Source: an uncultured Fibrobacterota bacterium
GTDB taxonomy: Bacteria; Fibrobacterota; Chitinivibrionia; Chitinivibrionales; CAYFVL01
NCBI GenBank assembly: GCA_964586285.1
Contig: CAZPHU010000009.1
Span: 1-62,095, forward strand
Reading direction: 5' to 3'
DNA: 62,095 bases
Shown piece by piece: positions 10,136 to 56,897 of the stretch; the first letter of the stretch is position 1; every line of letters begins with the position of its first letter. The translations under genes and the position numbers were made by a program. The notes beneath the pieces are model-generated. The model was not told the origin of the DNA, ran no database searches, and worked only from the letters and a program-made list of their open reading frames with translations.

Positions 10136-11695
10136 TCAGGGCTTGTTTTGAAAAGCATCGAGAAAAGAGCTTTGCAAGGTGTCTTCTGACGGAGTAACCA
10201 AAGGAAGTCGAACTTTTGGAGGGTATGCGGGTATACGTTTACTTACGGCGTACTTGATTTTTGCTGTCTGATCCGGCCCCGAAAAATAATCCGAAATCCT
10301 TGTTATTTCCGACTGCAATTCGGAGATTCGGCCGGAGTCATTTGTAGAGAGTGCCTTTTCCATATCTCTGTACAGCCCGGGAGAATGATTGGCGTGGCCG
10401 CTGACAAAACCGTAAGCACCAAGTGAACAGGCCTTCTCTATATAACGGTCTTTTCCGACATAGTAGTGTGCGGTGGATGAGATCAGATCCAAATTTGCGG
10501 AAGAATCCTTCAAACCAAAGTAACGTATTTTTGAGAGCATCTCACCGGTAATCTCGTTTTGTGTATGGGCGGGGAAATTATATAAAATGAACGGAATGTC
10601 TATCTGGCCTGCGACCGTGTTGAAATAGTCCACGATACCCTCTTCAGGGGCATGGGCGAAATAAAAAGGCGGCAGGCACACTATCGCATCAGCTCCATAA
10701 TCCCGTCCCCATCTTGCATGCAGAATCGAATCCTGTAAAGCACCGGCACCGGATTGGAATAGAATGACTCCGGGAAAATATCGGCGCGCAACCGTGAGCA
10801 GCAAACGCTTCTCCTCTCCGGTCAGGGAGAAAAACTCTCCGGTGGTTCCGTTTACCAGGATTCGGTGGATGTCGTTGTCGGCCAGAAAATCAAGATGCGC
10901 GATAAACATCTTTTCATCTACTGCACCGCTTTGGTCGAAAGGAACCGTGACCGGTACAATCAGTCCCGACAAATCTACTTTCATAAGATCGGCCGCTAAA
11001 ACAGATCCGAAGGTCTCGAAAAGCTCCTCAGTCATCGATTCTACCACAAGGTGGTAGTCTGCCCGACAAAACAGATGCATATCCGCCCATTTCTTGCTGT
11101 CGGCTCCATATTCACTGAATTCGCGAAGATTACTCTGGAGAAATGTGCTTATAGCCTTCTCCCTGCTATACCCTCTGACTTCTATATCACGTCGGCAACG
11201 GGTGGCAAGTTGGGTACGCCAGTCGGAATCGATAAAAATGGAAAAATCAACAAGATCTCTGAAATTTTCGTATGTCGATATCTCCCCGTCCAAAATCACG
11301 TATTTGCCCGGTGTAAACAAAATAGTCGCATCGGCCGTACCCTGAACCGGATCGTAAACCGGTTTATCGAAAGAGCGGCCTTCTTTGGCTGCCTGAATGT
11401 GTTTTCTGACAAGCTCCATTTTATTGGCATGGGGATGGGCACCGAAAAGATTAATTCGTTTTCTGACTTCGCGCGGTGTCTTGTAGTCGTCCAGATGCAG
11501 TACCGAGCTTTGGGGAATGATGCTTGCCAGTTTGCTGCAAAAGGTAGATTTCCCCGTTCCTCCCGGTCCTCCTACGGCAATAACTGCCGGACGGATAGGG
11601 GAGGGGAGACATTTTTGTATTATTTGAGCAACGATCTCTTCGGCGGCTCGACGGCTGCCGGCTTTGTAAGAAACGTGGGTCTTGTTCCCGGACAT
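10136..11695 (-). CDS. Fusion: phosphoribulokinase/uridine kinase-family P-loop kinase plus DHDPS/NAL-family class I aldolase
   Basis: N-half: GGPGGTGKST, LHLDDY, HPHAN, KPVYD, RDIEVRG. C-half: NGTTGEF, LPPFYF, ILYNFP and Schiff-base GLKDSS. Confidence 0.85.
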   Translation of the reverse strand: MSGNKTHVSYKAGSRRAAEEIVAQIIQKCLPSPIRPAVIAVGGPGGTGKSTFCSKLASIIPQSSVLHLDDYKTPREVRKRINLFGAHPHANKMELVRKHIQAAKEGRSFDKPVYDPVQGTADATILFTPGKYVILDGEISTYENFRDLVDFSIFIDSDWRTQLATRCRRDIEVRGYSREKAISTFLQSNLREFSEYGADSKKWADMHLFCRADYHLVVESMTEELFETFGSVLAADLMKVDLSGLIVPVTVPFDQSGAVDEKMFIAHLDFLADNDIHRILVNGTTGEFFSLTGEEKRLLLTVARRYFPGVILFQSGAGALQDSILHARWGRDYGADAIVCLPPFYFAHAPEEGIVDYFNTVAGQIDIPFILYNFPAHTQNEITGEMLSKIRYFGLKDSSANLDLISSTAHYYVGKDRYIEKACSLGAYGFVSGHANHSPGLYRDMEKALSTNDSGRISELQSEITRISDYFSGPDQTAKIKYAVSKRIPAYPPKVRLPLVTPSEDTLQSSFLDAFQNKP

Positions 11696-12284: not shown

Positions 12285-12968
12285 TTATTTTCCTGCTGCA
12301 AGAAGCGCCTCCGCAATCGCCATATCCTGAGGAGTAGTAATCTTGAAATTAAGCGAATCTCCCCAGACAAATCCCACCTCTATGCCGCTTTGCTCCATAA
12401 GCATCGCTTCGTCGGTAGGCGGTGTCTTGAATGTACTAATCTGCTTAAATCCGCCCAGCAGGGAGTCTTTGTGAAACAGCTGCGGAGTTCCAACCCTGAG
12501 AAGCTGCGATCGGTCGAGTGTCTCCAAGCAAAGATCGTTTTCAAATCGACGAATTGTATCAACCACCGGAGTGGCTGTTATACAGCACCTGAACCGATCT
12601 CTTTTCGCCACAACTTTGTCAATGACCTCTCTTGTTACAAACGGCCGCGCGGCGTCGTGTATCATCACCCATTGTGCAAGGGATTTCTCCACCCCATTCC
12701 TTACCGACTGCCATCTATGCGCACCTCCCGGGACTATGTGAACAGGTTTATTCACGGCCGTTGATGATATGATTTCATTAGTCTGTTCCATCATGGCTTC
12801 AGGAACAACAACGATAATAACACCAACTAAAGGGTGATCTTGAAAAACCGGGATGGAATAATTCAAAAGCGGTTTTCCCGACAACGGTACAAATGCCTTG
12901 GGTTGCGAATAACCCAACCGTGTGCCTTCACCCGCCGCAGCAATTATGACATCGACCTTTTCATCCAT
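12285..12968 (-). CDS. ispD: 2-C-methyl-D-erythritol 4-phosphate cytidylyltransferase
   Basis: AAGEGTRLG...PKAF, GGAHRWQSV, IHDAARPF, TPQLF, NFKITTPQD. Confidence 0.92.
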   Translation of the reverse strand: MDEKVDVIIAAAGEGTRLGYSQPKAFVPLSGKPLLNYSIPVFQDHPLVGVIIVVVPEAMMEQTNEIISSTAVNKPVHIVPGGAHRWQSVRNGVEKSLAQWVMIHDAARPFVTREVIDKVVAKRDRFRCCITATPVVDTIRRFENDLCLETLDRSQLLRVGTPQLFHKDSLLGGFKQISTFKTPPTDEAMLMEQSGIEVGFVWGDSLNFKITTPQDMAIAEALLAAGK

Positions 12969-32220: not shown

Positions 32221-33672
32221 TCAGGCGTTCTGCAGGATAATTTTCGATGCGGTGTACGCATTGACCATTACATTCCAAATACCGCCACCGGGTTTTCCCC
32301 AGTGCCCAACCTGATATAGATTCGATAAATGGGTAGTTATGGGCATTTTTGCTTCGCCGTAGATATCTCTGGTATTTTCAAAACCGTAGAGCGACCCGTT
32401 AGTGTTTCCGGTGTAGCGCTCAAAAGTCTGAGGTGATCCTGTCTCGAAGAGTACAATCTTATCGGCCAGACCTGGAACTATACTGTCTGCTTTTTGAATC
32501 ATCTTTTCGGCAATTTCATGTTTGGTATCTTTCCAATTGTCGGAAAAAGATTCCTCAACAAAATGCATCATTGTAAGAACGGGATAACTTGGATCATCAA
32601 CAGTGCGCAATAAAATCAGATGATCCATTGCAATACTTTTGTTCTCTTGGATTCGCCGGAAAATTCGACCATGATCTTTTGATTCAAACCAAAATGAGAT
32701 ATTATCATCAAGAATCTGAGTAAAGCTTTCTTCCATTCCACAGTAGACCGCTACACATGATACCGACGGCTTGAGATTGGACAGCCTTCTTACCCATCGT
32801 CTGCTTCGAGCTTTCTCTTCCAATATTCTGGTTTGCAGACTATAGGGGCTGATATTTGAAACAACCAACGGGGCATCGAAATCCTGCCCGTTGCTTGTAA
32901 TGACTTTGGTGACCTTTTTAGACGATTCGCTTAATATAGAACACACCTCTGTTTTCCTGTATACTTTTCCACCATTCGCGGAGATTATACCGGCCAGAGA
33001 ATCGGCAAGTGTGTGAAATCCCCCTCGTAGAAAATGAGAACCTTCGAAATAGTGGATCGTAAACATCATGGTGTAAAACAGCGCCGCACCATAATCGGGC
33101 GAAGCACCGGCATACGGCCATAATGAATACAGCACATGTTTCACATCCGAATCGGTCAAATGCCCATCAAGAAAATGCTTAAACGATTTGTTATGAAACT
33201 GTGACACAAACGACAAATCTTCCGGCGTGAAATTATGTTCGTAATCACGGATCGGATCTATGAGTATGCGTCTGAATTTTTGCATTGTATCGAAAAAACT
33301 GTCCAGTTCTTTGCGATGTTTTGGAAAACGCTCGTGAAGTTTATCCGTTATTGCTTCCTGATGCGAGGGCATCGTAAACGAACTATTCGGAGTAACCGTC
33401 CGATACATCGCAGGTTGATCAATGGGGGTTATGCTCTTATCTATGTCAAGAAGCCTTAAAAGGTGCATCAAGGTTCCGTGTTCACTTAACGGTACAGAGT
33501 GAATGCCGCTTTCAAAATGATACTTTTTTCGGCTGAAGCCGTGTGCATAGCCGCCTATTCTATAATGCTTCTCCAGCACGGCTACACGCATGCCCGCTCT
33601 TGCCAGAAAAGCTCCGCATGTCAGTCCGCCAATACCGGATCCGACAACAATTACATCATATGATGATGTCAA
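32221..33672 (-). CDS. CrtI/RetSat-like FAD-dependent oxidoreductase
   Basis: VVGSGIGGL...VLEKH..IGGY dinucleotide fold; SPQTFERYTGNTNGSLYG; LYQVGHW..PGGG. Confidence 0.85.
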   Translation of the reverse strand: MTSSYDVIVVGSGIGGLTCGAFLARAGMRVAVLEKHYRIGGYAHGFSRKKYHFESGIHSVPLSEHGTLMHLLRLLDIDKSITPIDQPAMYRTVTPNSSFTMPSHQEAITDKLHERFPKHRKELDSFFDTMQKFRRILIDPIRDYEHNFTPEDLSFVSQFHNKSFKHFLDGHLTDSDVKHVLYSLWPYAGASPDYGAALFYTMMFTIHYFEGSHFLRGGFHTLADSLAGIISANGGKVYRKTEVCSILSESSKKVTKVITSNGQDFDAPLVVSNISPYSLQTRILEEKARSRRWVRRLSNLKPSVSCVAVYCGMEESFTQILDDNISFWFESKDHGRIFRRIQENKSIAMDHLILLRTVDDPSYPVLTMMHFVEESFSDNWKDTKHEIAEKMIQKADSIVPGLADKIVLFETGSPQTFERYTGNTNGSLYGFENTRDIYGEAKMPITTHLSNLYQVGHWGKPGGGIWNVMVNAYTASKIILQNA

Positions 33673-33694
33673 AAAGTCCCCACAATATATTTAT

Positions 33695-35191
33695 TTAAGA
33701 AATGCTAAATTGCTTGTGATCGTCCCGGCAAATAATCTGCGTGACATGTTTACCCAATGCGGTCACTCTGGGGAGACCCCCTGGAGTTGCAATCCACTGC
33801 CCGGTCATATAGAAATTTTTCAGTTTCGGCAATGTCTTTGGGATGTTCAGACCAATATTCTTCGGTGTAGGCGCCCATCCCTGATAACTAGCCTTCCAGT
33901 TTTGAGTATAACGAACGTATGTCGCAGGTGTTGCGGTATCAATAGTCTCTATGTTCTTACGAGTTCCGGGGAAACGCTTCTCAAGACCGTCTATGACAGC
34001 TTCGGCAACTCGCTGCTTTTGCTGTTTGTACTCCTCATAATTATTTTCCCGCAATCTTGTCCAATAGGAATAATCGTGGGTGCGAAGATGGACAATTAAG
34101 GCAGTCTTGCCTTCAGGAGCAAAACAGGTATCGAAGTTGCAAATACGAATGAGCATTGAATCGATCTTTTCCGATCCCATTGGTATGCTTTCCGTAAGCG
34201 GCAAGACCAGCTTCGAGGGCGCATCGGAGTAGTCCATGTTCACACCCAACGAAATCTGTAAGAGAGAGGGAAAGACCGGAAATGTATCATACTGTTTTTT
34301 CAGTCGCTTATTTAAGTATTTCCCGTCAAGCATGTTAAAAAGCGCTTCGTGCCCGTCGGAGGCACAAACTACAATATCGGCCTTGTAAACGCTGCCGTCG
34401 GAGCACCTTACCCCAGTTGCTCTATTATTTTCAACCTCTATCCGGGTAACTCTTTTATGCAGACTGATTGTACCGCCAAGCTCCTTATACTTTCTCTGGA
34501 TGATATCTCGGAAATTAGCGGAGCCTCCGCGGGGATATCCGGCCGCACGTGCATGCATCCATGCCAATGCCATCATTACACTAAGAACCGAAAAGAAATC
34601 ATGGTGCGGAAAAATCAATCGCAACATCATTCCCAAGCGTTTGTTGCTGTATCGCGAGGCATACTCTTCTATGGTCTCCTTACGCCATTTGGCGTAAAAC
34701 CTGATTATCTTCAGATTCTTAAGCACAAACCTTACTGCTGTGTACGGATTTAGCAGCTCGGGTACCGTATCGAATGGAATGTCCATTCTGCTCAAATCAT
34801 CGATGGCTTCCGTGAATTCACGGGCCAACGATTCATCTTCAGGGGACAGACGAACCATCTCACGATATAATTCATGAGCATCCGTGTACACATGGAATGT
34901 CTCTCCCTCATAATCGATCTGCATGAATTCTTCAAAATCGATTATTTCAAGCTCATTGAAATCAATAAGTTCCTTGAGCACCTTATGCACAGTGGAACGA
35001 TCGGATGAACCGGGAAGCCAGTTAGTAGCCCCGTCAAAGATGTATTTCCCACGTTTCCACGAAACCGATACGCCGCCGCACTCTCGTCCCATTTCCAGAA
35101 CGTGGCTGTGGTATCCATTCATCTGCAGATAGCAGCCCGTTGCCAGGCCGCCGATTCCGCCTCCAATAATTATTACTTTTTCTCTTTTCAT
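33695..35191 (-). CDS. Second CrtI/phytoene-desaturase-like FAD-dependent oxidoreductase
   Basis: IIGGGIGGLATG, WKRGKYIFDG, ATPATYVRYTQNWKASYQGW, FYMTGQW..PGGLP. Confidence 0.85.
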   Translation of the reverse strand: MKREKVIIIGGGIGGLATGCYLQMNGYHSHVLEMGRECGGVSVSWKRGKYIFDGATNWLPGSSDRSTVHKVLKELIDFNELEIIDFEEFMQIDYEGETFHVYTDAHELYREMVRLSPEDESLAREFTEAIDDLSRMDIPFDTVPELLNPYTAVRFVLKNLKIIRFYAKWRKETIEEYASRYSNKRLGMMLRLIFPHHDFFSVLSVMMALAWMHARAAGYPRGGSANFRDIIQRKYKELGGTISLHKRVTRIEVENNRATGVRCSDGSVYKADIVVCASDGHEALFNMLDGKYLNKRLKKQYDTFPVFPSLLQISLGVNMDYSDAPSKLVLPLTESIPMGSEKIDSMLIRICNFDTCFAPEGKTALIVHLRTHDYSYWTRLRENNYEEYKQQKQRVAEAVIDGLEKRFPGTRKNIETIDTATPATYVRYTQNWKASYQGWAPTPKNIGLNIPKTLPKLKNFYMTGQWIATPGGLPRVTALGKHVTQIICRDDHKQFSIS

Positions 35192-35243
35192 GATAATGAA
35201 CTGTTCTGAACCGTTTTACACTGTTACCTGTTTAACCCTGTAA

Positions 35244-36131
35244 TCAGCTGTCACTTTCTTGCACAAAGGGTATATCTTCATGAAGAAAGTACCATTGCTC
35301 AGGGTGTTTTGATATTGTTGATTGAAGATTATCGTAGATAAGCTGCAAAATATTTGTCTTGTTTAGTGGAATTTCTTTTAGTGATAAGCTGTATAGATCA
35401 TTATTTTCCCGGAGCATTGTCGCGGCCGCGATTTCCATTGGTGCACGGCAGAACATCACTAGACGATCTATTCCGGCCCCGCCCCAAACCTTGGTACCGA
35501 AAAGCTCAACAGGCTTACTGTATGGTGTTTTTTCGTCGATTACGGTAACAAGGATTTCTTTTCTTCTCAGAGCCGCCGCCATATCGAGCGCGGCGTTTGT
35601 TTGAGGTTTGCCAATCTCAATAAACCGTATAGGGGCGAACAAACCACTTTCGTTCATCTTCTTGGCCCGGGCATGTGCCTCCTGGGAAAACCTTTCGGTA
35701 GTAAATCGCAAAACTACATTCACCGTATGCCCCATACGGGACAGTGTGGGTACGATGAATTCTATTGCTCCAAAATGACCGGTTACAATCAGGATTCCTT
35801 TGTTCTGTATGTCCGCCTGGTATAAAAAGGATATATCCCGGGTCTGTATGCGTCTGTTAAGAAAATCGGAAAAGAATTCGGGGCCTCCGCATAAGGGCAG
35901 CAACTTCTCATAATAGTGTAGCAGAAGATGTTTTTTAACCGCCTCTACTTGTTCCATTTCGCAAGGAAGCGAAAACTGGGCAAGATTCTCTCTGATATGA
36001 GCGCTTATTTCAGGATTTTCGGAGTACCACCAATTGCCTCTTTCGAAGATAAGATCGCGAAGCTGAGGTGGTGTGAGGTTAGGAATCTCAGACAATATCT
36101 GAGGGTCTTGTAAGTAGCGGCTTAAACTCAT
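35244..36131 (-). CDS. LpxL/HtrB-family (lysophospholipid/lipid A) acyltransferase
   Basis: ILIVTGHFGAIEF (HX4E catalytic motif), VIDE, VELFG, HPEQWYFLH. Confidence 0.75.
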   Translation of the reverse strand: MSLSRYLQDPQILSEIPNLTPPQLRDLIFERGNWWYSENPEISAHIRENLAQFSLPCEMEQVEAVKKHLLLHYYEKLLPLCGGPEFFSDFLNRRIQTRDISFLYQADIQNKGILIVTGHFGAIEFIVPTLSRMGHTVNVVLRFTTERFSQEAHARAKKMNESGLFAPIRFIEIGKPQTNAALDMAAALRRKEILVTVIDEKTPYSKPVELFGTKVWGGAGIDRLVMFCRAPMEIAAATMLRENNDLYSLSLKEIPLNKTNILQLIYDNLQSTISKHPEQWYFLHEDIPFVQESDS

Positions 36132-36159
36132 AGTTCTTTCAAAATATTCGGATAAACAT

Positions 36160-36191
36160 AAAGGCAGGAGAAAACAAGCTCCTGCCTTTTT
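36160..36191 (-). terminator. Hairpin downstream of acp
   Basis: aaaggcaggag-N8-ctcctgccttt, a perfect 11-bp stem. Confidence 0.6.
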
Positions 36192-36218
36192 AACTTATAG
36201 GCAAAAAGAATGCATTTG

Positions 36219-36473
36219 TTATTGATTCAAATACTTCTCGACTGTTTCGGTGCATTTATTGATCGAAATCAGATTGGGGAATTCAGATTCTGGAATGGAA
36301 ACACCGAACTTCTTTTCCATAGTGGCCAAAACTTCCAGCAACGCCATGGAATCGAGACCGACGTCATCGATAAAATGAGCATTATCGGTAATGTTTTCTT
36401 CTTCAACATCCATATCTCCTGCTATCTCAATGATAAGTTCACGGATGTCATTCTTAATTTCGGCACTATCCAT
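36219..36473 (-). CDS. Acyl carrier protein
   Basis: DVGLDSMALLE phosphopantetheine site, acidic sequence; start ATG 36473 after GAGGAG. Confidence 0.92.
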   Translation of the reverse strand: MDSAEIKNDIRELIIEIAGDMDVEEENITDNAHFIDDVGLDSMALLEVLATMEKKFGVSIPESEFPNLISINKCTETVEKYLNQ

Positions 36474-36537
36474 AACAAAAATCTCCTCGCTATGCAATCA
36501 CTTATTAGAATGCAACACTCATTTGACTGGGCATTAA

Positions 36538-37740
36538 TCACATAATGTTTTTAAAAATAATTGAGGCGCAATTACCATCGCACGAAAAAGAATTTATCAG
36601 TACGTATTCGGCGGCAAATTGCGGCATGTTTTCAAACTGAATGTTGGCCTCTCCCACTGTTTCATAGGAAGGCCCAACCCCGCTTATACGATTTTCAAAG
36701 CAATCAGCCAATGCACAGATCATAGATAAAGGGGCCCCGGCACCGTAGCATTCACCTACTTTTGCTTTGTATGCTGTAACAGGAGTATTTCCAAACAGCT
36801 TGGCGATTGCCGAAGACTCGATTGTATCGGCTGTCTTATTTCCGTTGGCACTTGCCGCTATAAATGATATCGCATCACAGGAAATGCCGGCCATATCACA
36901 TGCATTTTTCATGACATACTTTTGAACGTTTTCAGAAGGGGCAAACCCCGTAAGTGGTGCATCAGAATCAAAAGCGGAGTAGTACCCGACTATTTCCGCA
37001 ATCGGTTTTGCACCACGAGCGGACGCCTTCTCCAGTGTTTCTATCATAAAAACTCCGCTACCCTCACCCATCACCAGCCCGTCCGCATTACGACCGAAGG
37101 GCAAAATAGTGCCTTTGTGGGAAAGAATACCGGCCCGCTGCATCCCAAGCAGTTCAAAATATGATACTTCTTCTACGCCGCCAACCAGAATGGAATCCAG
37201 ATAACCGCGTCTGATGTAATCGCTGCCGTAGATAACAGCATCGATTCCCGAGTTAAATCCGGTGGAAACGGTAGTGCTTAACGTTCGTACACCGTAACGA
37301 ATGTTGGCGTTGCCGGTCGGCGAGTTGACAACGGTGTTTGCAAATGCCTGCGGATTGACACTGTTTACCCCGTTAACAATTGAATCACTGAGAAAATCAC
37401 CAATGCTCTGAACGCTGCCGAATGAAGTTCCTATACATATGCCGGGCTTGGTGTCATCATCGGCATTTTCAAAGAGATCCTTAAAAGGAGTCTCAATTGA
37501 ACCAAGAATTAATTTGGTCGCCCAATCTTTTGTACGCAGCCCCTTCTTCCCTAAAACTTCAACAGGATCGAAGTGAGTTGCTCTAAAACAGGGGAGCCCT
37601 TGATCAAAAGAATGGTATTCCGAATCCTGATATGAAGCCGGTGCACTTGGTTGCGACAGAGCATCCCTATGCTGCTCGAGCCCAACGCCTAAAGAACTTA
37701 CCGCACCGACACCGGTTATTACTAAGCGTGAATTATTCAT
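36538..37740 (-). CDS. Catalytically inactive ketosynthase (chain-length-factor-like)
   Basis: Full KS fold (ITGVG, PQAFANTV, MGEGSG) but the triad is replaced: STGFNSG for TACAAG, SANGN for HGTGT, VGEC for LGHT. Confidence 0.85.
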   Translation of the reverse strand: MNNSRLVITGVGAVSSLGVGLEQHRDALSQPSAPASYQDSEYHSFDQGLPCFRATHFDPVEVLGKKGLRTKDWATKLILGSIETPFKDLFENADDDTKPGICIGTSFGSVQSIGDFLSDSIVNGVNSVNPQAFANTVVNSPTGNANIRYGVRTLSTTVSTGFNSGIDAVIYGSDYIRRGYLDSILVGGVEEVSYFELLGMQRAGILSHKGTILPFGRNADGLVMGEGSGVFMIETLEKASARGAKPIAEIVGYYSAFDSDAPLTGFAPSENVQKYVMKNACDMAGISCDAISFIAASANGNKTADTIESSAIAKLFGNTPVTAYKAKVGECYGAGAPLSMICALADCFENRISGVGPSYETVGEANIQFENMPQFAAEYVLINSFSCDGNCASIIFKNIM

Positions 37741-37743
37741 GAA

Positions 37744-38970
37744 TTATCCTTTATATCTTCCGATCACGAGAGATGATGTATTGCCGGCAAATGCATAAGC
37801 ATTGGATACCGCTATATCTAATTTAGCTTCACGAGCCTTATTAGGTACATAATCCAGGTCGCAATCGGGATCGGGATCCTGATAATTGATCGTAGGAAGT
37901 AATGTGTTCCTGTTTATCATCAGTGCACACGCGCACGCCTCAATTGCCGATGCCGCACCCATGGTATGACCCAGCATGGACTTAAGAGAACTCATCGGGA
38001 TCTTATAGGCTCGTTCTCCAAATACTTTCTTTGAAATCAAAGTCTCCGATTTATCGTTCTCTTTGGTTCCTGTACCGTGGGCGCAAATGTAATCGATTTG
38101 ATCGGGGCTCACGCCTGAATGCTTGAGGGCTCGATTCAGTGCAAGGATACCACCACTACCCTGTGGATCGGGGATCGTCATTTTAAAGGCATCACATCCC
38201 AGTCCGTACCCAAGCACTTCAGCGTAAACAGGTGCTTTTCGTGCAAGTGCATGACTAAGTGTTTCCAGTATTAGTATACCGGCACCTTCGCTGACGGCCA
38301 TACCTTTTCGATTCAGATCAAACGGCCGCACAATATCGCCGGTTGTGGCAAGCAGACGATTGAAACCCGTAAACGCAATAGAGGAGAATGGGTCGGTACC
38401 ACCTACGACCGCAATGTCGATACGGTTGAGCTGCATAAGATCGTATGCGTATCCGATAGCGTAGTTGCCTGCTGCGCAGGCTGTAGGTATTATGAAATTT
38501 GGTCCCTTGGCACCAAAAGCCTTGGCCACATGAGCAGGAATAACTCCACAGGGATATTGGCGAGGTAAATTCGAAGGAATCGCCTCGGCTGAGTTATTAT
38601 CGTATTTAGCGTGAATCCCTTTTTCAAGTATTTGCGGCTCACCCATTGTAGTGCCGATACTTACTCCAAACCGGTAGGCGTTAACCGCCTTGAGATTAAG
38701 TTTCGCATCGGTGACAGCCATAGCGGCAGCTGCTACCGCAAACTGGCTTGAGCGGCCCATATTCTCTATCTGTTCTTGTGTCAGATACTCCTGTGGATCA
38801 AAGTCTTTTACTTCACCGCCGGTTTTGGTTCGGTACTCGGTCGTATCAATCGAAGTAAGCGGAGCAACACCGTTTTTTCCATTGACGGCAGCTTCCCAAA
38901 ATGTTTCGATTCCGGTGCCAATGGGTGTGACCAGTCCCAGTCCCGTGATTACGACTCTATTACTATTCAT
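37744..38970 (-). CDS. fabF: Beta-ketoacyl-ACP synthase II-like ketosynthase (active)
   Basis: PTACAAG, AHGTGT, KSMLGHTMGA, SNAYAFAG. Confidence 0.9.
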   Translation of the reverse strand: MNSNRVVITGLGLVTPIGTGIETFWEAAVNGKNGVAPLTSIDTTEYRTKTGGEVKDFDPQEYLTQEQIENMGRSSQFAVAAAAMAVTDAKLNLKAVNAYRFGVSIGTTMGEPQILEKGIHAKYDNNSAEAIPSNLPRQYPCGVIPAHVAKAFGAKGPNFIIPTACAAGNYAIGYAYDLMQLNRIDIAVVGGTDPFSSIAFTGFNRLLATTGDIVRPFDLNRKGMAVSEGAGILILETLSHALARKAPVYAEVLGYGLGCDAFKMTIPDPQGSGGILALNRALKHSGVSPDQIDYICAHGTGTKENDKSETLISKKVFGERAYKIPMSSLKSMLGHTMGAASAIEACACALMINRNTLLPTINYQDPDPDCDLDYVPNKAREAKLDIAVSNAYAFAGNTSSLVIGRYKG

Positions 38971-39131
38971 TCACCTGCTTCCAGTTGAAAAATTACGAAA
39001 AAAGGTTTCGTTAAAATGAAAAACATATCAAATGTTGTTCCGAATACTGTAAATCCTGAAAAAACAAGCTAGCAATATACAATCATTCTCTGCTTGTCCG
39101 CAAAAACAACCCAATACTTTTCATGAAAAAG

Positions 39132-39575
39132 TTATACAACTCCGGTTTGGGAAGCCGCAAACATAAGCGAACCGCCTGCAACCGTTTCGCCGTCGACAAA
39201 TGATTTGGCAGAAACAATCGCGTTTTTCCCGACTATCTTTTCCACGATGATTTTCGTTATCAGCTGATCCCCCGGTGTAACCGGCTTACGAAAGGAGATC
39301 TTCGAAATCTTTCCCAAATAATACACCGTATTTTCCTTTAATCCACCGCCGGATTTGGCCAGCAGAAAACAGGACGCCTGTGCCATATTTTCGACAATAT
39401 AGACTCCGGGAAAAACCGGATGCCCCGGAAAATGCCCCTGAAACTGCGCCTCATTAACCGTAATATTCTTTAGAACCGTGACCGACTCATTAGGTGTAAA
39501 TTGGGTTACTCGGTCGATGAGAAGGAAAGGATAACGGTGCGGAACATTACGCATGATCTCTTCTATATCAAACAT
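39132..39575 (-). CDS. fabZ: 3-hydroxyacyl-ACP dehydratase
   Basis: PHRYPFLLIDRV, FQGHFPGHPVFPGVYIVENMAQ. Confidence 0.93.
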   Translation of the reverse strand: MFDIEEIMRNVPHRYPFLLIDRVTQFTPNESVTVLKNITVNEAQFQGHFPGHPVFPGVYIVENMAQASCFLLAKSGGGLKENTVYYLGKISKISFRKPVTPGDQLITKIIVEKIVGKNAIVSAKSFVDGETVAGGSLMFAASQTGVV

Positions 39576-39590
39576 GTAAACCCTTTCAGA

Positions 39591-40325
39591 TCAGGCGGTC
39601 ATCCCGCCGTCTATTGTAAATACCTGACCGGTGATGTATCCTGCTTTTTCGGAGAGTAGAAACGTCACCAACTCTGCTACCTCATCCGCCTTGCCCAGAC
39701 GTTGCATGGGTATCATCTTTTTCATCTCTTCCAAATGCTTTGCATTTATCTTATCGGTCATATCCGTTTCTATGAACCCTGGAGCTACGCAGTTGACCGG
39801 AATGCCCAGCTTAGCGGTCTCTTTTGCCAGGGCACGAGTAAAGCCGATGATGCCTGCCTTGGAGGCACAGTAATTTGTCTGTCCGGCAAGCCCAATCAAA
39901 CCGCTTACAGAGGTTACATTGACAATACTTCCCTTTTTATTCTTCATCAGCTGTACAATCAAGGCGCGAGTGACATTGAAATAACCGTTGAGGTTCGTAT
40001 TCAGTACACTGTCCCAATCCTCACGGCTCATCAGAAAAAGCATCTTATCACGCGTGATTCCCGCGTTATTCACAAGCCCGTCCACATCCTGAAGAAAATC
40101 CTTGCACCGATCAACGAAATCCGAGGCCTGCTTAGGATCGGATAAGTCCGCTTCAAATGCCATGAGTTTTTCTCCAGTCGGATCAAGAGACTGAATCATC
40201 TCCTCGGCAAGAGCCTTATTCGAACGATAATTGAATGCGACTTTACATCCCTGGTTCACCAGCTTGGTCACAATTGCTTTCCCTATTCCGCGTGATCCGC
40301 CGGTAACGATAACATTTTTGGCCAT
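39591..40325 (-). CDS. fabG: 3-oxoacyl-ACP reductase
   Basis: [32 protein letters not shown]. Confidence 0.92.
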
Positions 40326-40368
40326 GATTAATGGTCCTTCCGCAAATATTTCAATTTAACTGCTGCTG

Positions 40369-40788
40369 TCAATTGTCGTTTTCAGGTGCGAGCTTGGTTT
40401 CTTGTTTAGGGCTTATACCCTCACACCGACTCATTTTCAGCCAATGGTGCGGGTGGTTGACCGAATCACCATTCAGGGTGAAATAAAGAATGCGGGCGCG
40501 AATCAGCGAGTCGCTGCGCCATTTGTAGTGATAACCCATTTCCATGGTTAGATCTTCACTTTCAATGGATGCTACCAAAACGGTATCCTTAACCGAGTAT
40601 GTACCGTTGCCTGATACGCTTTCGTCCCTCAAACTGGCGATCGATAGTGAATCCTCATTCTGAAACGTTATTACTAATCCCTCATCACTTACGCACCATG
40701 TACCTTCAAACTTCTGTTGGGATGAAAGTGGCAACACCACTGATAAAACGACTGCCGCGATGCCCGCTGAAAATGAACTTAGCTTCAT
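40369..40788 (-). CDS. Small exported hypothetical protein, lipocalin-like beta fold
   Basis: ATG 40788 after AAGGAG; signal peptide, then FEGTW (GxW) and alternating beta-strand pattern. Confidence 0.6.
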   Translation of the reverse strand: MKLSSFSAGIAAVVLSVVLPLSSQQKFEGTWCVSDEGLVITFQNEDSLSIASLRDESVSGNGTYSVKDTVLVASIESEDLTMEMGYHYKWRSDSLIRARILYFTLNGDSVNHPHHWLKMSRCEGISPKQETKLAPENDN

Positions 40789-40801
40789 AATTCTCTCCTT
40801 T

Positions 40802-43087
40802 TTAACTACTTTTCTCTGTATGTCTGCTCCCGAACATTCGGAACAAAATGGGTAAAAACAGCAATGAAAATGTTGAACTTGTGACCATCGATACAAAAAC
40901 AAACAATCCGAAATGGCGTATCGGCGGGAAACTGGAAAACGCCAGAACGAGAAAACCGATCCCTACAACAAAAGTGTTGAACATTATGACCGCCCCTTTT
41001 GTCTTGGAGGTTGTCATAAGAGCTTCAAAAGCATTGACGTGAGAATCACGTACATACATATATCCCGCCACAAAATGGATCGCATAATCGATACCGATAC
41101 CGATGCAGGTATTAACAATTATTACGGTAACCGCATTAATGGCGACACCAAAAAATCCCATAAGGGAATATACGAAAAGAGTCGAAAGCAGAATCGGTAT
41201 GATTGCAAAAGCTCCCGTTCGTACCGATTTAAACAGAAGGCATAAAACCACAAACACCGAAATGAAGGCAATTAGTAATGAGGAAACCTGTGTATCTATG
41301 AGCACATAGGTCATCGCATCGTTCAGGACCGGAGGCCCGGCGACAAGAACCTCGAATGAAGGGTATTTTTCAGAAAGTGTTTCTTTTAAAGACTTTGAAA
41401 GTTCGAGGAATCGGGTACCGGTGACATTTTTGCAGATGAGCATGATTCTGGTTGTCGTTCTGTCTTCTGTAATCCAGTGGCTTATATAATTGTTGAAACG
41501 TTTTCCCAGAAGCCCCTTGCCTCCAAGAATCATCGAAACCGCAGCATCGGAGATCGGCTTATCAGTCAGCATCATGCTTACTTTTCTTATGAGGGGGAGC
41601 ATGGATGTTGTGGCACCTACCATATCGAGGCTTTTTGCGTAGTTTGATATTTCTTCGACCGTTCGCCATTGATCTGCTGAAGTTAGCGTCGTGTCCCTGT
41701 TTTGGAGCACAACTGTCAAAAATCTGGTTCCTCCGAGGTGATCGCTGATAATCTCGTCGGATCTGCGTATCTGATTTTTAGCAGAAAACATGGCAATCGG
41801 ATTGCCTTCAACGCGGACACGTATGTAACCTATTGTCCCTACGGCGATTATAACTCCCACAGCAATAAGCCACGCATAATCGTTGCGAACAAACGATCCG
41901 TAGTGATTCCAGAAATCAGAGCCGTTTTTCCCATGTGCTTTGGGAGGAATCGGGGATTCGGTACGCTTGTGGCGGGTGTAGGAAAGGGCAATGGGCAGCA
42001 GGATTATACTCAAAAGAAGGGCCAGGACGACCCCAATACTGGTAAATATACCGAAATTTCTGGTCCAGGGTACATCGGAGAATGCAAAAGAAAAGAAACC
42101 GACGAAAGTCGTTATCGCAGACAGGAAAATAGGCTTCATCAGCTCCGAAAAGGTTTTGACGATTATGTCCGTACCGCTGATATTACCCGACTCTGTGCTG
42201 TAGCGTCCGTATGTTTTAAATACATGAATCGCGCTTGCGACACCGATAGGAAACAAAATCACCGGTATCATGGAGGTGACCACCGAAAATTCGAATCCGA
42301 AAATCGACATAAGACCAAAAGTCCATATTATGGCGGTAAAAATTATAAGAAGGGATATGAGGGCATAATACAATCTTTTGAAAACCAGGTATAAAAGAAT
42401 GAAAACAACGACAATACACAAGGGGAGCAACACGGAGAAGTCCCGACGCATCGCGGTGTCGATTGAATAGGCGTACAGGGGAGCACCGGTAATATACAGG
42501 CTTGAGCCTTCAAGAGAATCCAACCGGGCGTGAACGCGAGTGACCTGGGAGACAATGTCAACCTGATTTTTATCCTCCGGCACATCCATCATCATACCCA
42601 GAACAGATTCGTCCTGAGATATCAGTGCGTTAGTGAATTCGACATTTTCTTTTATTCGCTCCCGGATCTGCTCCTCTGTAAGCTCTTTCTTGCGCGAAAC
42701 GATATAATCGCTGCTTAAGCCAAACAGTCCCCCGGAGACTGGAACCTGTATTGTTCCCAGATGAACAATGTTATCAATGCCGTCTATAGCCGCAAATTCT
42801 TGTCCCCAGCTTTGCATCGAATCGATTTTGGCTTTAAGGCTCAAAGTGTCGAATTTGGCGATAAGAAGAATAGAGCGCGGGGAAGAGAAGGTTTTCTGAA
42901 GGTTTTCGTAATCTATTTTTTCCGGGAGATCCGCCGGAATCGTTTTGGTCGGATCGTTGTTTACTTCCAGACGAGGAAGAAACCATATCATAAACACGGT
43001 AATTACCGCGGTTATGCCAATTACTACGGTTCGGAAACGAATAAGTGTATGAACAATTGAACTGGTTAAGTTGGATTTCATGAGCAT
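40802..43087 (-). CDS. MMPL/RND-family lipid exporter
   Basis: Two (1 TM + large loop + 5 TM) repeats; ITGAP, GIGIDYAIHF, FPPIRHFG. Confidence 0.88.
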   Translation of the reverse strand: MLMKSNLTSSIVHTLIRFRTVVIGITAVITVFMIWFLPRLEVNNDPTKTIPADLPEKIDYENLQKTFSSPRSILLIAKFDTLSLKAKIDSMQSWGQEFAAIDGIDNIVHLGTIQVPVSGGLFGLSSDYIVSRKKELTEEQIRERIKENVEFTNALISQDESVLGMMMDVPEDKNQVDIVSQVTRVHARLDSLEGSSLYITGAPLYAYSIDTAMRRDFSVLLPLCIVVVFILLYLVFKRLYYALISLLIIFTAIIWTFGLMSIFGFEFSVVTSMIPVILFPIGVASAIHVFKTYGRYSTESGNISGTDIIVKTFSELMKPIFLSAITTFVGFFSFAFSDVPWTRNFGIFTSIGVVLALLLSIILLPIALSYTRHKRTESPIPPKAHGKNGSDFWNHYGSFVRNDYAWLIAVGVIIAVGTIGYIRVRVEGNPIAMFSAKNQIRRSDEIISDHLGGTRFLTVVLQNRDTTLTSADQWRTVEEISNYAKSLDMVGATTSMLPLIRKVSMMLTDKPISDAAVSMILGGKGLLGKRFNNYISHWITEDRTTTRIMLICKNVTGTRFLELSKSLKETLSEKYPSFEVLVAGPPVLNDAMTYVLIDTQVSSLLIAFISVFVVLCLLFKSVRTGAFAIIPILLSTLFVYSLMGFFGVAINAVTVIIVNTCIGIGIDYAIHFVAGYMYVRDSHVNAFEALMTTSKTKGAVIMFNTFVVGIGFLVLAFSSFPPIRHFGLFVFVSMVTSSTFSLLFLPILFRMFGSRHTEKSS

Positions 43088-55052: not shown

Positions 55053-56666
55053 ATGACAATGCCGGAAAAAGAAGACCGCTTCACGGTTAGATATCAGGTT
55101 ACGGTTCGCGAGGGTGGTAAGATCGAGCAAATAGCGCGTGATATAGCGGTGGAGCAAACGGTCGAAATCCCTTTTGACTGCATTCCGGATGAGCATATCA
55201 GACGGGGAATCATCGGTAAAATCGAATATATCCGGCAGTTAAAGCAGGATAAACCACGATATGAAGTCCATATCAGCTATCCGTCGGCTGTGACCGGCCG
55301 GGAAGTTCCCCAGTTTCTGAATGTACTGTTTGGTAACATCTCACTCAAATCCAACATACAGATAAAAGATTTCTCCTATCCGCACGATCCGCGTCTGTTT
55401 CCCGGTCCAACCTCCGGTATTCCCGGTATAAGGAAGCGTTTAGGGGTGTACAGTCGTCCCCTGACCTGCACTGCATTAAAACCCCTTGGTCTTTCCACCG
55501 AAGAACTTGCCCGGCTGGCAGGAGAATTTGCGGCGGGAGGAGTCGATTTCATAAAGGACGACCACGGGCTCTCCGATCAGCAGTACCATCCGTTCAGGGA
55601 GCGGGTAGCGCGATGTCAGGAAGCGGTGACACGGGGCAATGCACTAAATGGCGGCAATACGATTTACAGTCCTATGGTATCGGGAAGCTTCGATCGGATA
55701 ATGCAGCAGGTGGAGTACGCACTGTCGTGTGGTGTGCGGGCGATTCTTATGGCCCCTATGCTTGTCGGTATGGATACCGTGCGGTATGTAGCTCAAACAT
55801 ATGGTCCAATCATTCTGGCTCATCCGTCGTTTACCGGTACTCATTTTCATGATCGAGATCACGGTATGACACCGGCGGTACTGCTTGGAAAGCTTTTCCG
55901 ACTGATAGGGGCGGATGTTTCAATATTTCCTAATGCCGGTGGGCGTTTTGGATTTACGCAAGAGGACTGTGCCCGTTTGGCTTCTGCGCTTCGGGGGCCA
56001 ATGCACAATGTCAAACCGGCATTTCCATGTCCGGCCGGTGGTATGCAGCTAAAAAAAATTGATTCGATTATCCAACAATTTGGGCCCGATACGATGCTGT
56101 TGATTGGAGGATCCATCCTGCAGCATCCCCATGGGGTTATAGAAGGCACCAAGGCGTTTGTGGATGCCGTAAGCCGGTTGTTTCCCGAAGAGGCAACCGC
56201 AGATACGCAAAGCAATATGTGGCAGGCGCCCTCAGCCTGCGAACTGCCCGCCGCTGGAATAAACCAAAACAAGCATGTCTCAGAGCTGTTGCGTAACGAT
56301 TCTTTTCGCTGGAGCGACCGGTCGGTTGATTTGTATAAAACGGACACTACGGTGAATTTCAAAGGAATAAGCCGGCAGAATTTATTCGGCATATTTGGCG
56401 AAAAAACCTCTTTCGAACTACGCTATTTTGAAATCGAGCCGGGAGGATATTCCAGTCTGGAGCGCCATGCCCACGAGCATGTCATTATTGGAGCGCGCGG
56501 TGAGGGCATCATAAGAAAAGGCGACAACGATTACACCGTCAGTGTGCATGATATAGCGTATGTAAAGCCCCACGAAGTTCACCAGCTTCGAAACAACACC
56601 GAACAACCTTTCGGGTTTTACTGTATCGTTGACCGTACCAGAGACCGGCCGGTAGCCCTGGATTGA
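55053..56666 (+). CDS. Fusion: form IV RuBisCO-like protein (KDDH type) plus C-terminal cupin (MTXu-5P methylsulfurylase-like)
   Basis: EQTVE, LFGNISL, ALKPLGL, GGVDFIKDDHGL, AHPSF, FPNAGGRF, PAGGM; then RYFEIEPGGYSSLERHAHEH...HQLRN...GFYCIVDRTRDRP. Confidence 0.88.
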   Translation: MTMPEKEDRFTVRYQVTVREGGKIEQIARDIAVEQTVEIPFDCIPDEHIRRGIIGKIEYIRQLKQDKPRYEVHISYPSAVTGREVPQFLNVLFGNISLKSNIQIKDFSYPHDPRLFPGPTSGIPGIRKRLGVYSRPLTCTALKPLGLSTEELARLAGEFAAGGVDFIKDDHGLSDQQYHPFRERVARCQEAVTRGNALNGGNTIYSPMVSGSFDRIMQQVEYALSCGVRAILMAPMLVGMDTVRYVAQTYGPIILAHPSFTGTHFHDRDHGMTPAVLLGKLFRLIGADVSIFPNAGGRFGFTQEDCARLASALRGPMHNVKPAFPCPAGGMQLKKIDSIIQQFGPDTMLLIGGSILQHPHGVIEGTKAFVDAVSRLFPEEATADTQSNMWQAPSACELPAAGINQNKHVSELLRNDSFRWSDRSVDLYKTDTTVNFKGISRQNLFGIFGEKTSFELRYFEIEPGGYSSLERHAHEHVIIGARGEGIIRKGDNDYTVSVHDIAYVKPHEVHQLRNNTEQPFGFYCIVDRTRDRPVALD

Positions 56667-56897
56667 ACGGTATAACTTTTTTTTCGGCTTACCTATTACT
56701 TTACTTTATCGCATCGCATCGCATTGCATCCCGTGCTACACTGATCCTGCTTACAAAAGAATTGTGCCGGTATCAAGGACTACTCAGAATCTGTTCAGAG
56801 AAACCACAACTGGTCCTGCTGTTGAAGCTATTTCGACTTTCGTTTACAGCCACACTATTTAACTGCTTGTTTCTATGTTTCTTTTATGTATCTTCTC

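Follow-up and report, generated by a model that had tools for sequence, protein, structure and literature searches.

A RuBisCO-like protein fused to a methylsulfurylase-type cupin in an uncultured Fibrobacterota bacterium, a candidate bifunctional enzyme of the methylthioadenosine-isoprenoid shunt

We analyzed a stretch of 62,095 nt from an uncultured Fibrobacterota bacterium (contig CAZPHU010000009.1 of assembly GCA_964586285.1, positions 1 to 62,095, forward strand; referred to here as the window), in which a single gene at 55053..56666 fuses a form IV RuBisCO-like protein (RLP) to a cupin. The gene probably encodes a bifunctional enzyme of a shunt leading from 5'-methylthioadenosine (MTA) to isoprenoids (MTA-isoprenoid shunt), judging from the family assignments of its two halves. 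The RLP domain would isomerize 5-methylthioribulose-1-phosphate (MTRu-1P) to 1-methylthioxylulose-5-phosphate (MTXu-5P), from which the cupin, which carries an invariant Cys and is predicted to hold a metal through His residues, would strip the methylthio group with the aid of a thiol, leaving 1-deoxyxylulose-5-phosphate (DXP). The fusion is a variant of a well-described two-enzyme pathway and is widespread but patchy. Full-text literature searches, whose reach did not extend to Erb et al. 2012, Warlick et al. 2012, and their supplements, found no published description of an RLP-cupin fusion. The features of the gene are as follows.

55053..56666, forward strand: RLP-linker-cupin fusion gene, whole (single open reading frame [ORF], stop codon included; Pfam RuBisCO_large and Cupin_2)
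55053..56207, forward strand: RLP domain of the DeepYkr type, predicted MTRu-1P 1,3-isomerase (aa 1-385; best solved relative, 3qfw)
55554..55565, forward strand: KDDH motif (aa 168-171), replacing the KDDE of RuBisCO
56208..56303, forward strand: linker (aa 386-417), varying in sequence and length among relatives and predicted to be disordered
56232..56243, forward strand: linker motif S-A-C-E (aa 394-397; Cys396 at 56238-56240)
56304..56663, forward strand: cupin domain, predicted MTXu-5P methylsulfurylase (aa 418-537; nearest solved relatives, 3ibm, 3kgz, and 3jzv)
56460..56480, forward strand: cupin metal-site motif ERHAHEH (aa 470-476)
56622..56624, forward strand: Cys524 in the GFYCIVD strand

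Architecture of the fusion gene and integrity of its reading frame

According to the ORF listing and translation, the gene is one ORF of 537 aa on the forward strand, with an ATG start and no internal stop. The translation contains the segments VDFIKDDHGLSDQ (aa 165-177), LERHAHEH (aa 469-476), and GFYCIVDRTRDRP (aa 521-533). The Pfam domain RuBisCO_large was detected at aa 122-374 (E value, 1.3e-30; 107.2 bits; cut-off, 30.1) and Cupin_2 at aa 458-525 (E value, 8e-11; 41.9 bits; cut-off, 27.2), while RuBisCO_large_N matched weakly at aa 6-111 (18.6 bits, below the cut-off of 20.7). Between the two domains, a linker of ~30 to 40 aa runs from the last RLP helix (ending at about aa 376-388) to where conservation of the cupin begins (about aa 412-420). 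Translation and Pfam together confirm the RLP-cupin fusion in one gene, which an earlier sequence-only reading of this DNA had described as a single ORF with a form IV RLP (IKDDHGL), a linker of ~35 aa, and a cupin. In an AlphaFold2 model built from 63 fused homologues (alignment A2; 42 to 65% identity to the query), both domains are confident (mean predicted local distance difference test score [pLDDT], 90.4; predicted template modeling score, 0.77), and pLDDT falls below 50 in the middle of the linker (aa 390-406).

In Alphaproteobacteria, the RLP and cupin genes are separate and lie close together, and two such adjoining genes might be read as one if assembly or sequencing had gone wrong in the linker. 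The sequence data led us to reject this artefact, to which we assign next to no probability. Both Pfam domains occur together in 117 of the 120 best relatives (90%-identity clusters, query included; 511 to 575 aa), which come from many sources; of the other three, one is a fragment of 336 aa, and two are full-length but have only PF00016 on record. The frame is also open over both domains, without stops, in 13 other genomes of the phylum, and the linker carries a conserved motif (see below). Among the Logan contigs of four sequencing runs, all labeled as microbial mat metagenomes, one run (X1) holds the whole stretch in one piece in near-identical form and is possibly the source sample. A second run (X2), from a different study, covers 55782-56672 with three overlapping contigs and 0 gaps. 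Its only difference inside the linker is 56212 G>A, which changes Ser387 (AGC) to Asn and creates no stop. The stop or frameshift in the linker that had been considered as a warning sign was thus found neither in the frames of these 117 relatives nor in the X2 contigs, which have no indel there.

Family assignment of the two halves and the linker

The best solved-structure match of the protein was 3qfw, an RLP of Rhodopseudomonas palustris (aa 7-374; E value, 6e-82; 279 bits). It was followed by the YkrW/MtnW enolases 2oej (167.6 bits), 2oek (166.5), 4nas (158.7), and 2zvi (139.8), type III RuBisCO structures (about 110 to 133), and the Photo-type RLP structures 2qyg (R. palustris RLP2; 111) and 1tel (Chlorobaculum tepidum; 105). 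A Foldseek comparison of the model with 3qfw gave a template modeling (TM) score of 0.93 on the target, a root mean square deviation of 1.8 Å, and 38% identity in the structural alignment. Together with the Pfam match and the model confidence, this supports the fold of a RuBisCO large subunit (an N-domain and a TIM barrel) that lacks a small subunit. The structure titles are "Rubisco-like protein from Rhodopseudomonas palustris" for 3qfw and rlp2 of the same organism for 2qyg. R. palustris has two RLPs, so 3qfw is by exclusion presumably RLP1. According to PMC5893883, the two are RLP1 (RPA2169, DeepYkr) and RLP2 (RPA0262, Photo), and RLP1 is an MTRu-1P 1,3-isomerase in vivo. The comparison with characterized DeepYkr members rests on 3qfw, the Rhodospirillum rubrum RLP sequence being part of neither the comparison nor the tree. 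By these scores, the RLP half appears closer to a DeepYkr member than to the YkrW, Photo, GOS, or bona fide RuBisCO groups. This agrees with its earlier placement in the KDDH family of MTRu-1P isomerases, and a grouping with YkrW enolases, raised as a possible counterindication, was not observed (279 bits for 3qfw versus 167 for YkrW).

In RuBisCO, the KDDE motif holds the carbamylated lysine. The query has KDDH at this place, as do 3qfw (IKDDH) and the R. rubrum RLP, and the Geobacillus kaustophilus enolase 2oej has VKDDE. The KDDH, AHP, and GGRF motifs are common to the query and 3qfw over aa 7-374. Residues invariant in 63/63 fused proteins of A2 are K143, P144, D165, K168, D170, H171, H257, P258, R298, G329, G330, G352, and G353. 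Among 116 cupin-less RLP representatives (50% identity), the motif is KDDH in 96 and KDDQ in 12. The YkrW/MtnW RLPs of Bacillus subtilis and G. kaustophilus (2oej/2oek), which are 2,3-diketo-5-methylthiopentyl-1-phosphate enolases, resemble the query in their RLP fold and MTA-derived substrate but carry KDDE. An enolase of this type was rejected on that motif and on scores far below the cut-offs (NF007095, 219.7 versus 409; TIGR03332, 165.5 versus 513.6). A bona fide RuBisCO of forms I to III was likewise rejected (NF003252, 158.6 versus 438; TIGR03326, 152.7 versus 497.45; NF010002, 57.4 versus 489).

The cupin half was nearest to the solved structures 3ibm (98.9 bits), 3kgz (78.3), and 3jzv (71.4), compared with 47.4 bits for TM1459-type cupins. 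Of these, 3ibm is the Halorhodospira halophila homologue and 3kgz the R. palustris homologue; 3jzv is titled "uncharacterized protein Rru_A2000." The query cupin and all three structures share ERHxHxH, HQ(L/F)R, and GF(L/Y)C..(D/N)..RD(R/K)P, including a Cys aligned with Cys524. Invariant in 63/63 proteins of A2 are W420, Y428, R441, R457, Y458, F459, E470, H472, H474, H476, H510, C524, D527, R530, D531, and P533. The conserved Cys in the last barrel strand is reportedly catalytic in the R. rubrum enzyme. The proposal that the cupin belongs to the methylsulfurylase family is borne out by these nearest relatives. Rru_A2000 is the MTXu-5P methylsulfurylase of R. rubrum and Rru_A1998 its RLP isomerase, as stated in PMC4334135 and PMC4958253.

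Both halves thus have counterparts in purple bacteria. The DeepYkr RLPs Rru_A1998 and RLP1 are like the query in fold, in RLP length (about 370 to 385 aa), and in having a partner of the same cupin family; they stand alone, whereas the C terminus of the query runs on into the linker and cupin. The reaction ascribed to the DeepYkr family turns MTRu-1P into MTXu-5P along with MTRu-5P. The partnership takes the form of a fusion here and of adjoining genes in 39 of 50 loci (see below). Rru_A2000-type methylsulfurylases share the Cupin_2 barrel, the motifs, and an (F/Y)RW N-terminal strand with the query. They are free proteins of about 130 to 170 aa, while the query cupin is the C-terminal domain of an RLP, following a linker with a Cys that is conserved in close relatives. 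A precedent for consecutive methionine-salvage enzymes in one polypeptide is MtnBD of Tetrahymena thermophila (PMC3698126), which joins a dehydratase to a dioxygenase in another pathway branch and in a eukaryote.

The linker holds a motif, S-[SA]-C-E, that we report as a new observation: as far as the compared sequences go, it appears to be a feature of close fused relatives that is absent from split forms. In A2, the Cys is present in 56/63 proteins, Ser394 in 54/63, and Glu397 in 49/63. A Cys at the place of Cys396 was found in 106 of 113 assessable close relatives (by pattern and by inspection of 14 pattern misses; 7 of the 120 best relatives were not assessable). Nothing similar was found in the RLP tails or cupin N termini of split forms. 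Across 34 fused 50%-identity representatives, the linker is 25 to 221 aa long.

One speculative role, which we hold to be rather doubtful, is that of a built-in thiol. Cys396, on a flexible arm, would reach the cupin site and either take the methylthio group or resolve a methyl-disulfide on Cys524. Methanethiol would thereby come free, and thioredoxin would reduce the intramolecular disulfide that remains. Such a role is favored because the motif is common in close relatives and occurs in no split form and because the host lacks glutathione synthetase (see below). Counting against it, only 15 of the 34 distant fused representatives have the motif, the model does not dock Cys396, and the split forms of the same glutathione-free phylum manage without the motif. 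If true, the fused enzyme would have no need of glutathione, which would account for the occurrence of this form of the shunt in glutathione-free anaerobes.

Pathway context and weighing of the proposed function

The source genome is 94% complete and holds several genes on either side of the predicted reactions. Two spermidine-synthase-family (Spermine_synth) genes could provide MTA, and MtnA (contig C43; TIGR00512, 447.8 bits; cut-off, 279) would make MTRu-1P. Downstream, DXP would enter the methylerythritol phosphate (MEP) pathway through dxr (453.3 bits) and ispD, the latter within the window:

12285..12968, reverse strand: ispD, MEP pathway (TIGR00453, 208.6 bits; cut-off, 181.3), 42 kb from the fusion gene and not linked to it

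The suggestion that ispD in the window indicates a MEP pathway able to take DXP therefore holds for both ispD and dxr. The methylthio group would leave as methanethiol and be returned to methionine by one of two O-acetylhomoserine sulfhydrylases (TIGR01326, 597.3 and 592.8 bits, both over the cut-off). The best contextual support comes from split forms of the own phylum, which share a gene string with a Cys/Met-metabolism pyridoxal phosphate (PLP) enzyme of O-acetylhomoserine sulfhydrylase size. This enzyme family re-uses methanethiol in R. rubrum. Classical methionine salvage needs O2 and the acireductone dioxygenase ARD, which was not found in the source genome.

Several results weigh against a shunt enzyme. 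No NCBIfam model names either half of the fusion protein above its cut-off. In the source genome, we found no MTA phosphorylase (MtnP) over the cut-off (TIGR01694; best, 69.9 versus 274.85) and no match to the models for MTA/S-adenosylhomocysteine nucleosidase (MtnN; TIGR01704) or methylthioribose kinase (MtnK; TIGR01767), so that the supply of substrate is not explained. The presence of dxs (763.6 bits) means that the shunt is not needed for making DXP. Neither glutathione synthetase (GSH-S_ATP) nor Glu_cys_ligase domains were found in the source genome, a search that did not cover other ligase types and in which PF04262 is a narrow model that matched only 1 of 14 control genomes; of 20 further genomes of the phylum with a fused or split RLP, 19 likewise gave no GSH-S_ATP match. 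The host thus differs from R. rubrum, in which the methylsulfurylase uses glutathione as a co-substrate in vivo and yields S-methylthio-glutathione (PMC4334135). The fusion gene is flanked by argH and a Rad3/DinG-type helicase gene, without pathway neighbors, and no mtnA, phosphorylase, or thioredoxin gene adjoins any of 11 fused loci of the phylum, which have no conserved pathway partner and only lineage synteny with an AlgH-like gene. Finally, mtnA is commoner in the phylum (95 of 296 genomes) than an RLP (just 22).

The claim of a bifunctional shunt enzyme is therefore upheld in its family assignments and MEP genes and weakened by an upstream MTA route that is half there and by the missing glutathione synthetase. 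Among the genes that the sequence-only reading had suggested looking for, mtnA and dxr are present, and an MTA phosphorylase and nucleosidase were not found; the upstream pathway whose complete absence would have been telling is represented by mtnA, without MtnP, MtnN, or MtnK. The shunt would accordingly have two steps unlike those of the model organisms, i.e., the entry from MTA to methylthioribose-1-phosphate and a thiol in place of glutathione. Within the order, mtnA occurs in nearly all genomes, and MTA phosphorylase scores over the cut-off in only 7 of 81, all of one family; we therefore regard the missing MtnP as an order-wide trait and not an assembly gap. In order members that have it, the MTA phosphorylase gene lies within about 1 to 2 kb of mtnA on the same contig (G054, contig C41; G055, C9; G053, C14). 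The best TIGR01694 match in the source genome is an inosine/guanosine-type (type I) purine nucleoside phosphorylase (PNP; 384.1 bits to NF006054), the sole PNP_UDP_1 gene. As a guess, MtnA may be fed by this PNP (contig C126), the one candidate that we found, perhaps once MTA has been deaminated. The deaminating enzyme could be a TRZ/ATZ-type amidohydrolase encoded on contig C12, which scores below every curated cut-off.

All 22 RLP-bearing genomes of the phylum have mtnA. The surplus of mtnA over RLP indicates that mtnA does not depend on the RLP and that most carriers use another outlet for MTRu-1P. The fusion gene is thus an accessory branch and not the sole outlet, since most mtnA-bearing relatives lack it. 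Contig C12 also holds (L100:50-2064, forward strand) the C-terminal part of an aldehyde:ferredoxin oxidoreductase and, behind it, a protein of 388 aa with a class II aldolase domain as its C-terminal half. This aldolase-domain protein may be an alternative outlet, similar to the dihydroxyacetone phosphate shunt, in mtnA carriers without an RLP.

The same chemistries might instead serve another substrate or role, i.e., another 5-substituted ribulose-1-phosphate (e.g., from 5'-deoxyadenosine or by a methylthio-inosine route) or sulfur salvage with DXP as a by-product, in which case "MTA-isoprenoid shunt" would be a misnomer in this anaerobe. We consider this unlikely, though well short of negligible. 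It would accommodate the lack of a canonical enzyme from MTA to methylthioribose-1-phosphate here and in most of the order, where only the PNP and the low-scoring amidohydrolase are at hand, as well as the presence of dxs and the linkage of own-phylum split forms to a sulfhydrylase-type PLP enzyme rather than to isoprenoid genes. It fits less well with the cupin, which retains all residues common to the methylsulfurylase structures, Cys included, and would be superfluous for a deoxy substrate, or with MtnA, which scores as a methylthioribose-1-phosphate isomerase and not as a ribose-1,5-bisphosphate isomerase (211 bits; cut-off, 314.1).

An improbable reading is that only the RLP is active, with a cupin that has no methylsulfurylase activity and serves in regulation, in ligand sensing, or as a structural appendage, or that the roles are reversed. 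A weak match of the cupin to the AraC-type ligand-binding model PF02311 (20.1 bits, below the cut-off of 21.1) points that way, and no thiol co-substrate system was identified in the source genome. The metal-binding His residues and the Cys are, however, invariant in A2, the enzyme family is nearest (71 to 99 bits versus 47 for TM1459-type cupins), and the fused cupins form one clade beside stand-alone enzymes. A bifunctional shunt enzyme is thus the reading that we prefer.

On this reading, the fusion would be a natural "Rosetta stone," an independent confirmation of the pairing of DeepYkr RLPs with methylsulfurylase cupins, and would carry the oxygen-independent MTA-isoprenoid shunt beyond purple bacteria, into many lineages that are uncultured and for the most part anaerobic. 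RLPs of the fused family from Scalindua profunda and magnetotactic Nitrospirota (Magnetobacterium) are described in print as of "function unknown" or in "sulfur metabolism," with the cupin unmentioned. The reading would assign them a function that can be tested and would suggest a biological origin for methanethiol in anoxic mats and sediments. That neither MtnP nor glutathione synthesis turned up hints at two as yet undescribed parts of the pathway in these organisms. A one-gene module from MTRu-1P to DXP could also serve isoprenoid engineering.

Distribution, trees, and genomic site

The nearest named relatives of the fusion protein are from metagenome-assembled genomes (MAGs) of Fibrobacterota/Chitinispirillaceae, and the lineages of the best relatives by name are Fibrobacterota, Nitrospirota (including magnetotactic ones), anammox Planctomycetota, Chloroflexota, and Desulfuromonadota. 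Two fused relatives (P0056 and P0079) bear the JGI name "S-methyl-5-thioribulose 1-phosphate isomerase." For the best 150 relatives among 50%-identity representatives, a domain-based count gave 34 with both domains and 116 with the RLP alone. A pattern scan of one genome per species, which rests on few peptide patterns and is no census, returned 50 loci. Two of these are fused (a Chitinispirillaceae MAG with 65% identity and a gammaproteobacterial MAG), and 39, mostly of Alphaproteobacteria, have an RLP gene and, 24 to 342 nt further on, a cupin match that lies in a different frame or beyond a stop. In the remaining 9, only the RLP matched; three of these loci are at contig ends. The gene order in the 39 split loci (RLP, then cupin) is the order within the fusion. 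The fusion would have joined two genes that Alphaproteobacteria arrange head to tail, and it would keep both activities equal in amount and side by side.

Of the 296 genomes of the phylum, 22 have any match: 14 are fused (source genome included), 7 have the RLP alone, and 1 has a distant RLP. A separate cupin is present in 6 of the 7 RLP-alone genomes. In one split locus (G031; L091:7968-11373, reverse strand), the cupin, a 429-aa Cys/Met PLP enzyme, a CoA-binding protein, and the RLP lie in one string; another (G034; L090:4857-9672, forward strand) has a PLP enzyme, an Rrf2 regulator, MnmA, the cupin, and the RLP. The RLPs of these two split forms nest among fused RLPs and their cupins among stand-alone cupins.

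Separate phylogenies of the two domains, which the earlier reading had proposed, part the fused rows from most of the others in the RLP tree and from the split rows in the cupin tree. The RLP tree has 120 rows (63 of A2 plus loci with ≥300 query residues matched) and left out 57 of the 120 best relatives and loci L050, L055-L057, L059, and L060. In it, a branch with 99% support in the Shimodaira-Hasegawa-like approximate likelihood ratio test (SH-aLRT) divides 75 fused and 3 own-phylum split rows from 42 split or RLP-only rows, and the fused/split label needs 3 changes. The 36 sampled proteobacterial split RLPs all lie across this branch from the fused proteins. In the cupin tree (113 rows; 131 columns; poorly resolved inside), one branch with 100% support parts fused from split rows, and the own-phylum split cupins group with proteobacterial ones. 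Sampling in both trees is biased to relatives of the query, and a quick search method was used. The topologies would fit a single old fusion that some Fibrobacterota later broke up, replacing the cupin, and distant fused representatives with long, different linkers, which are not in the trees, may be separate fusions.

The earlier claim that places the shunt "in this lineage" is overstated: the fusion gene was not found in three other genomes of the family, one of the same genus included. In that same-genus genome (G005), recJ-argH is followed by the helicase gene after 170 bp, where the window has 2,042 bp holding the fusion gene. We saw no compositional or repeat signature of horizontal transfer: the GC content of the fusion gene (0.507) and that of its third codon positions (0.511) are the same as in its neighbors, and direct repeats in its flanks do not exceed the size expected by chance, so that the data fit gain and loss alike. 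Promoter and terminator scans around the gene gave 2 promoter-like sites versus 3.2 expected in shuffles.

Two RLP relatives have other domain combinations, either of which may be a gene-calling read-through. P0266 (730 aa) has an RLP followed by a transketolase/DXP-synthase-like N-terminal part, and P0159 (726 aa) has an inositol-monophosphatase-family domain ahead of the RLP. Elsewhere in the source genome (contig C108; L099:1483-2919, reverse strand), a dihydroorotase gene (pyrC) appears as two ORFs split by one TAA, either a sequencing error or a broken gene. In the window, an ORF of 518 aa (10136-11692, reverse strand) combines a phosphoribulokinase/uridine-kinase-like part (aa 33-225) with a DapA-family aldolase part (aa 240-507), an unusual kinase-aldolase fusion for which all matches are below curated cut-offs. 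The region 32221-43084 (reverse strand) holds two CrtI-family desaturase-like genes next to genes for two FabF-like ketosynthases, FabZ, an HAE3/MMPL-type transporter, and a FabG-like reductase, which also scores 282.8 bits against the flexirubin reductase model FlxB (cut-off, 340). The gene content resembles that of a cluster for a pigment or a lipid of the aryl-polyene type.

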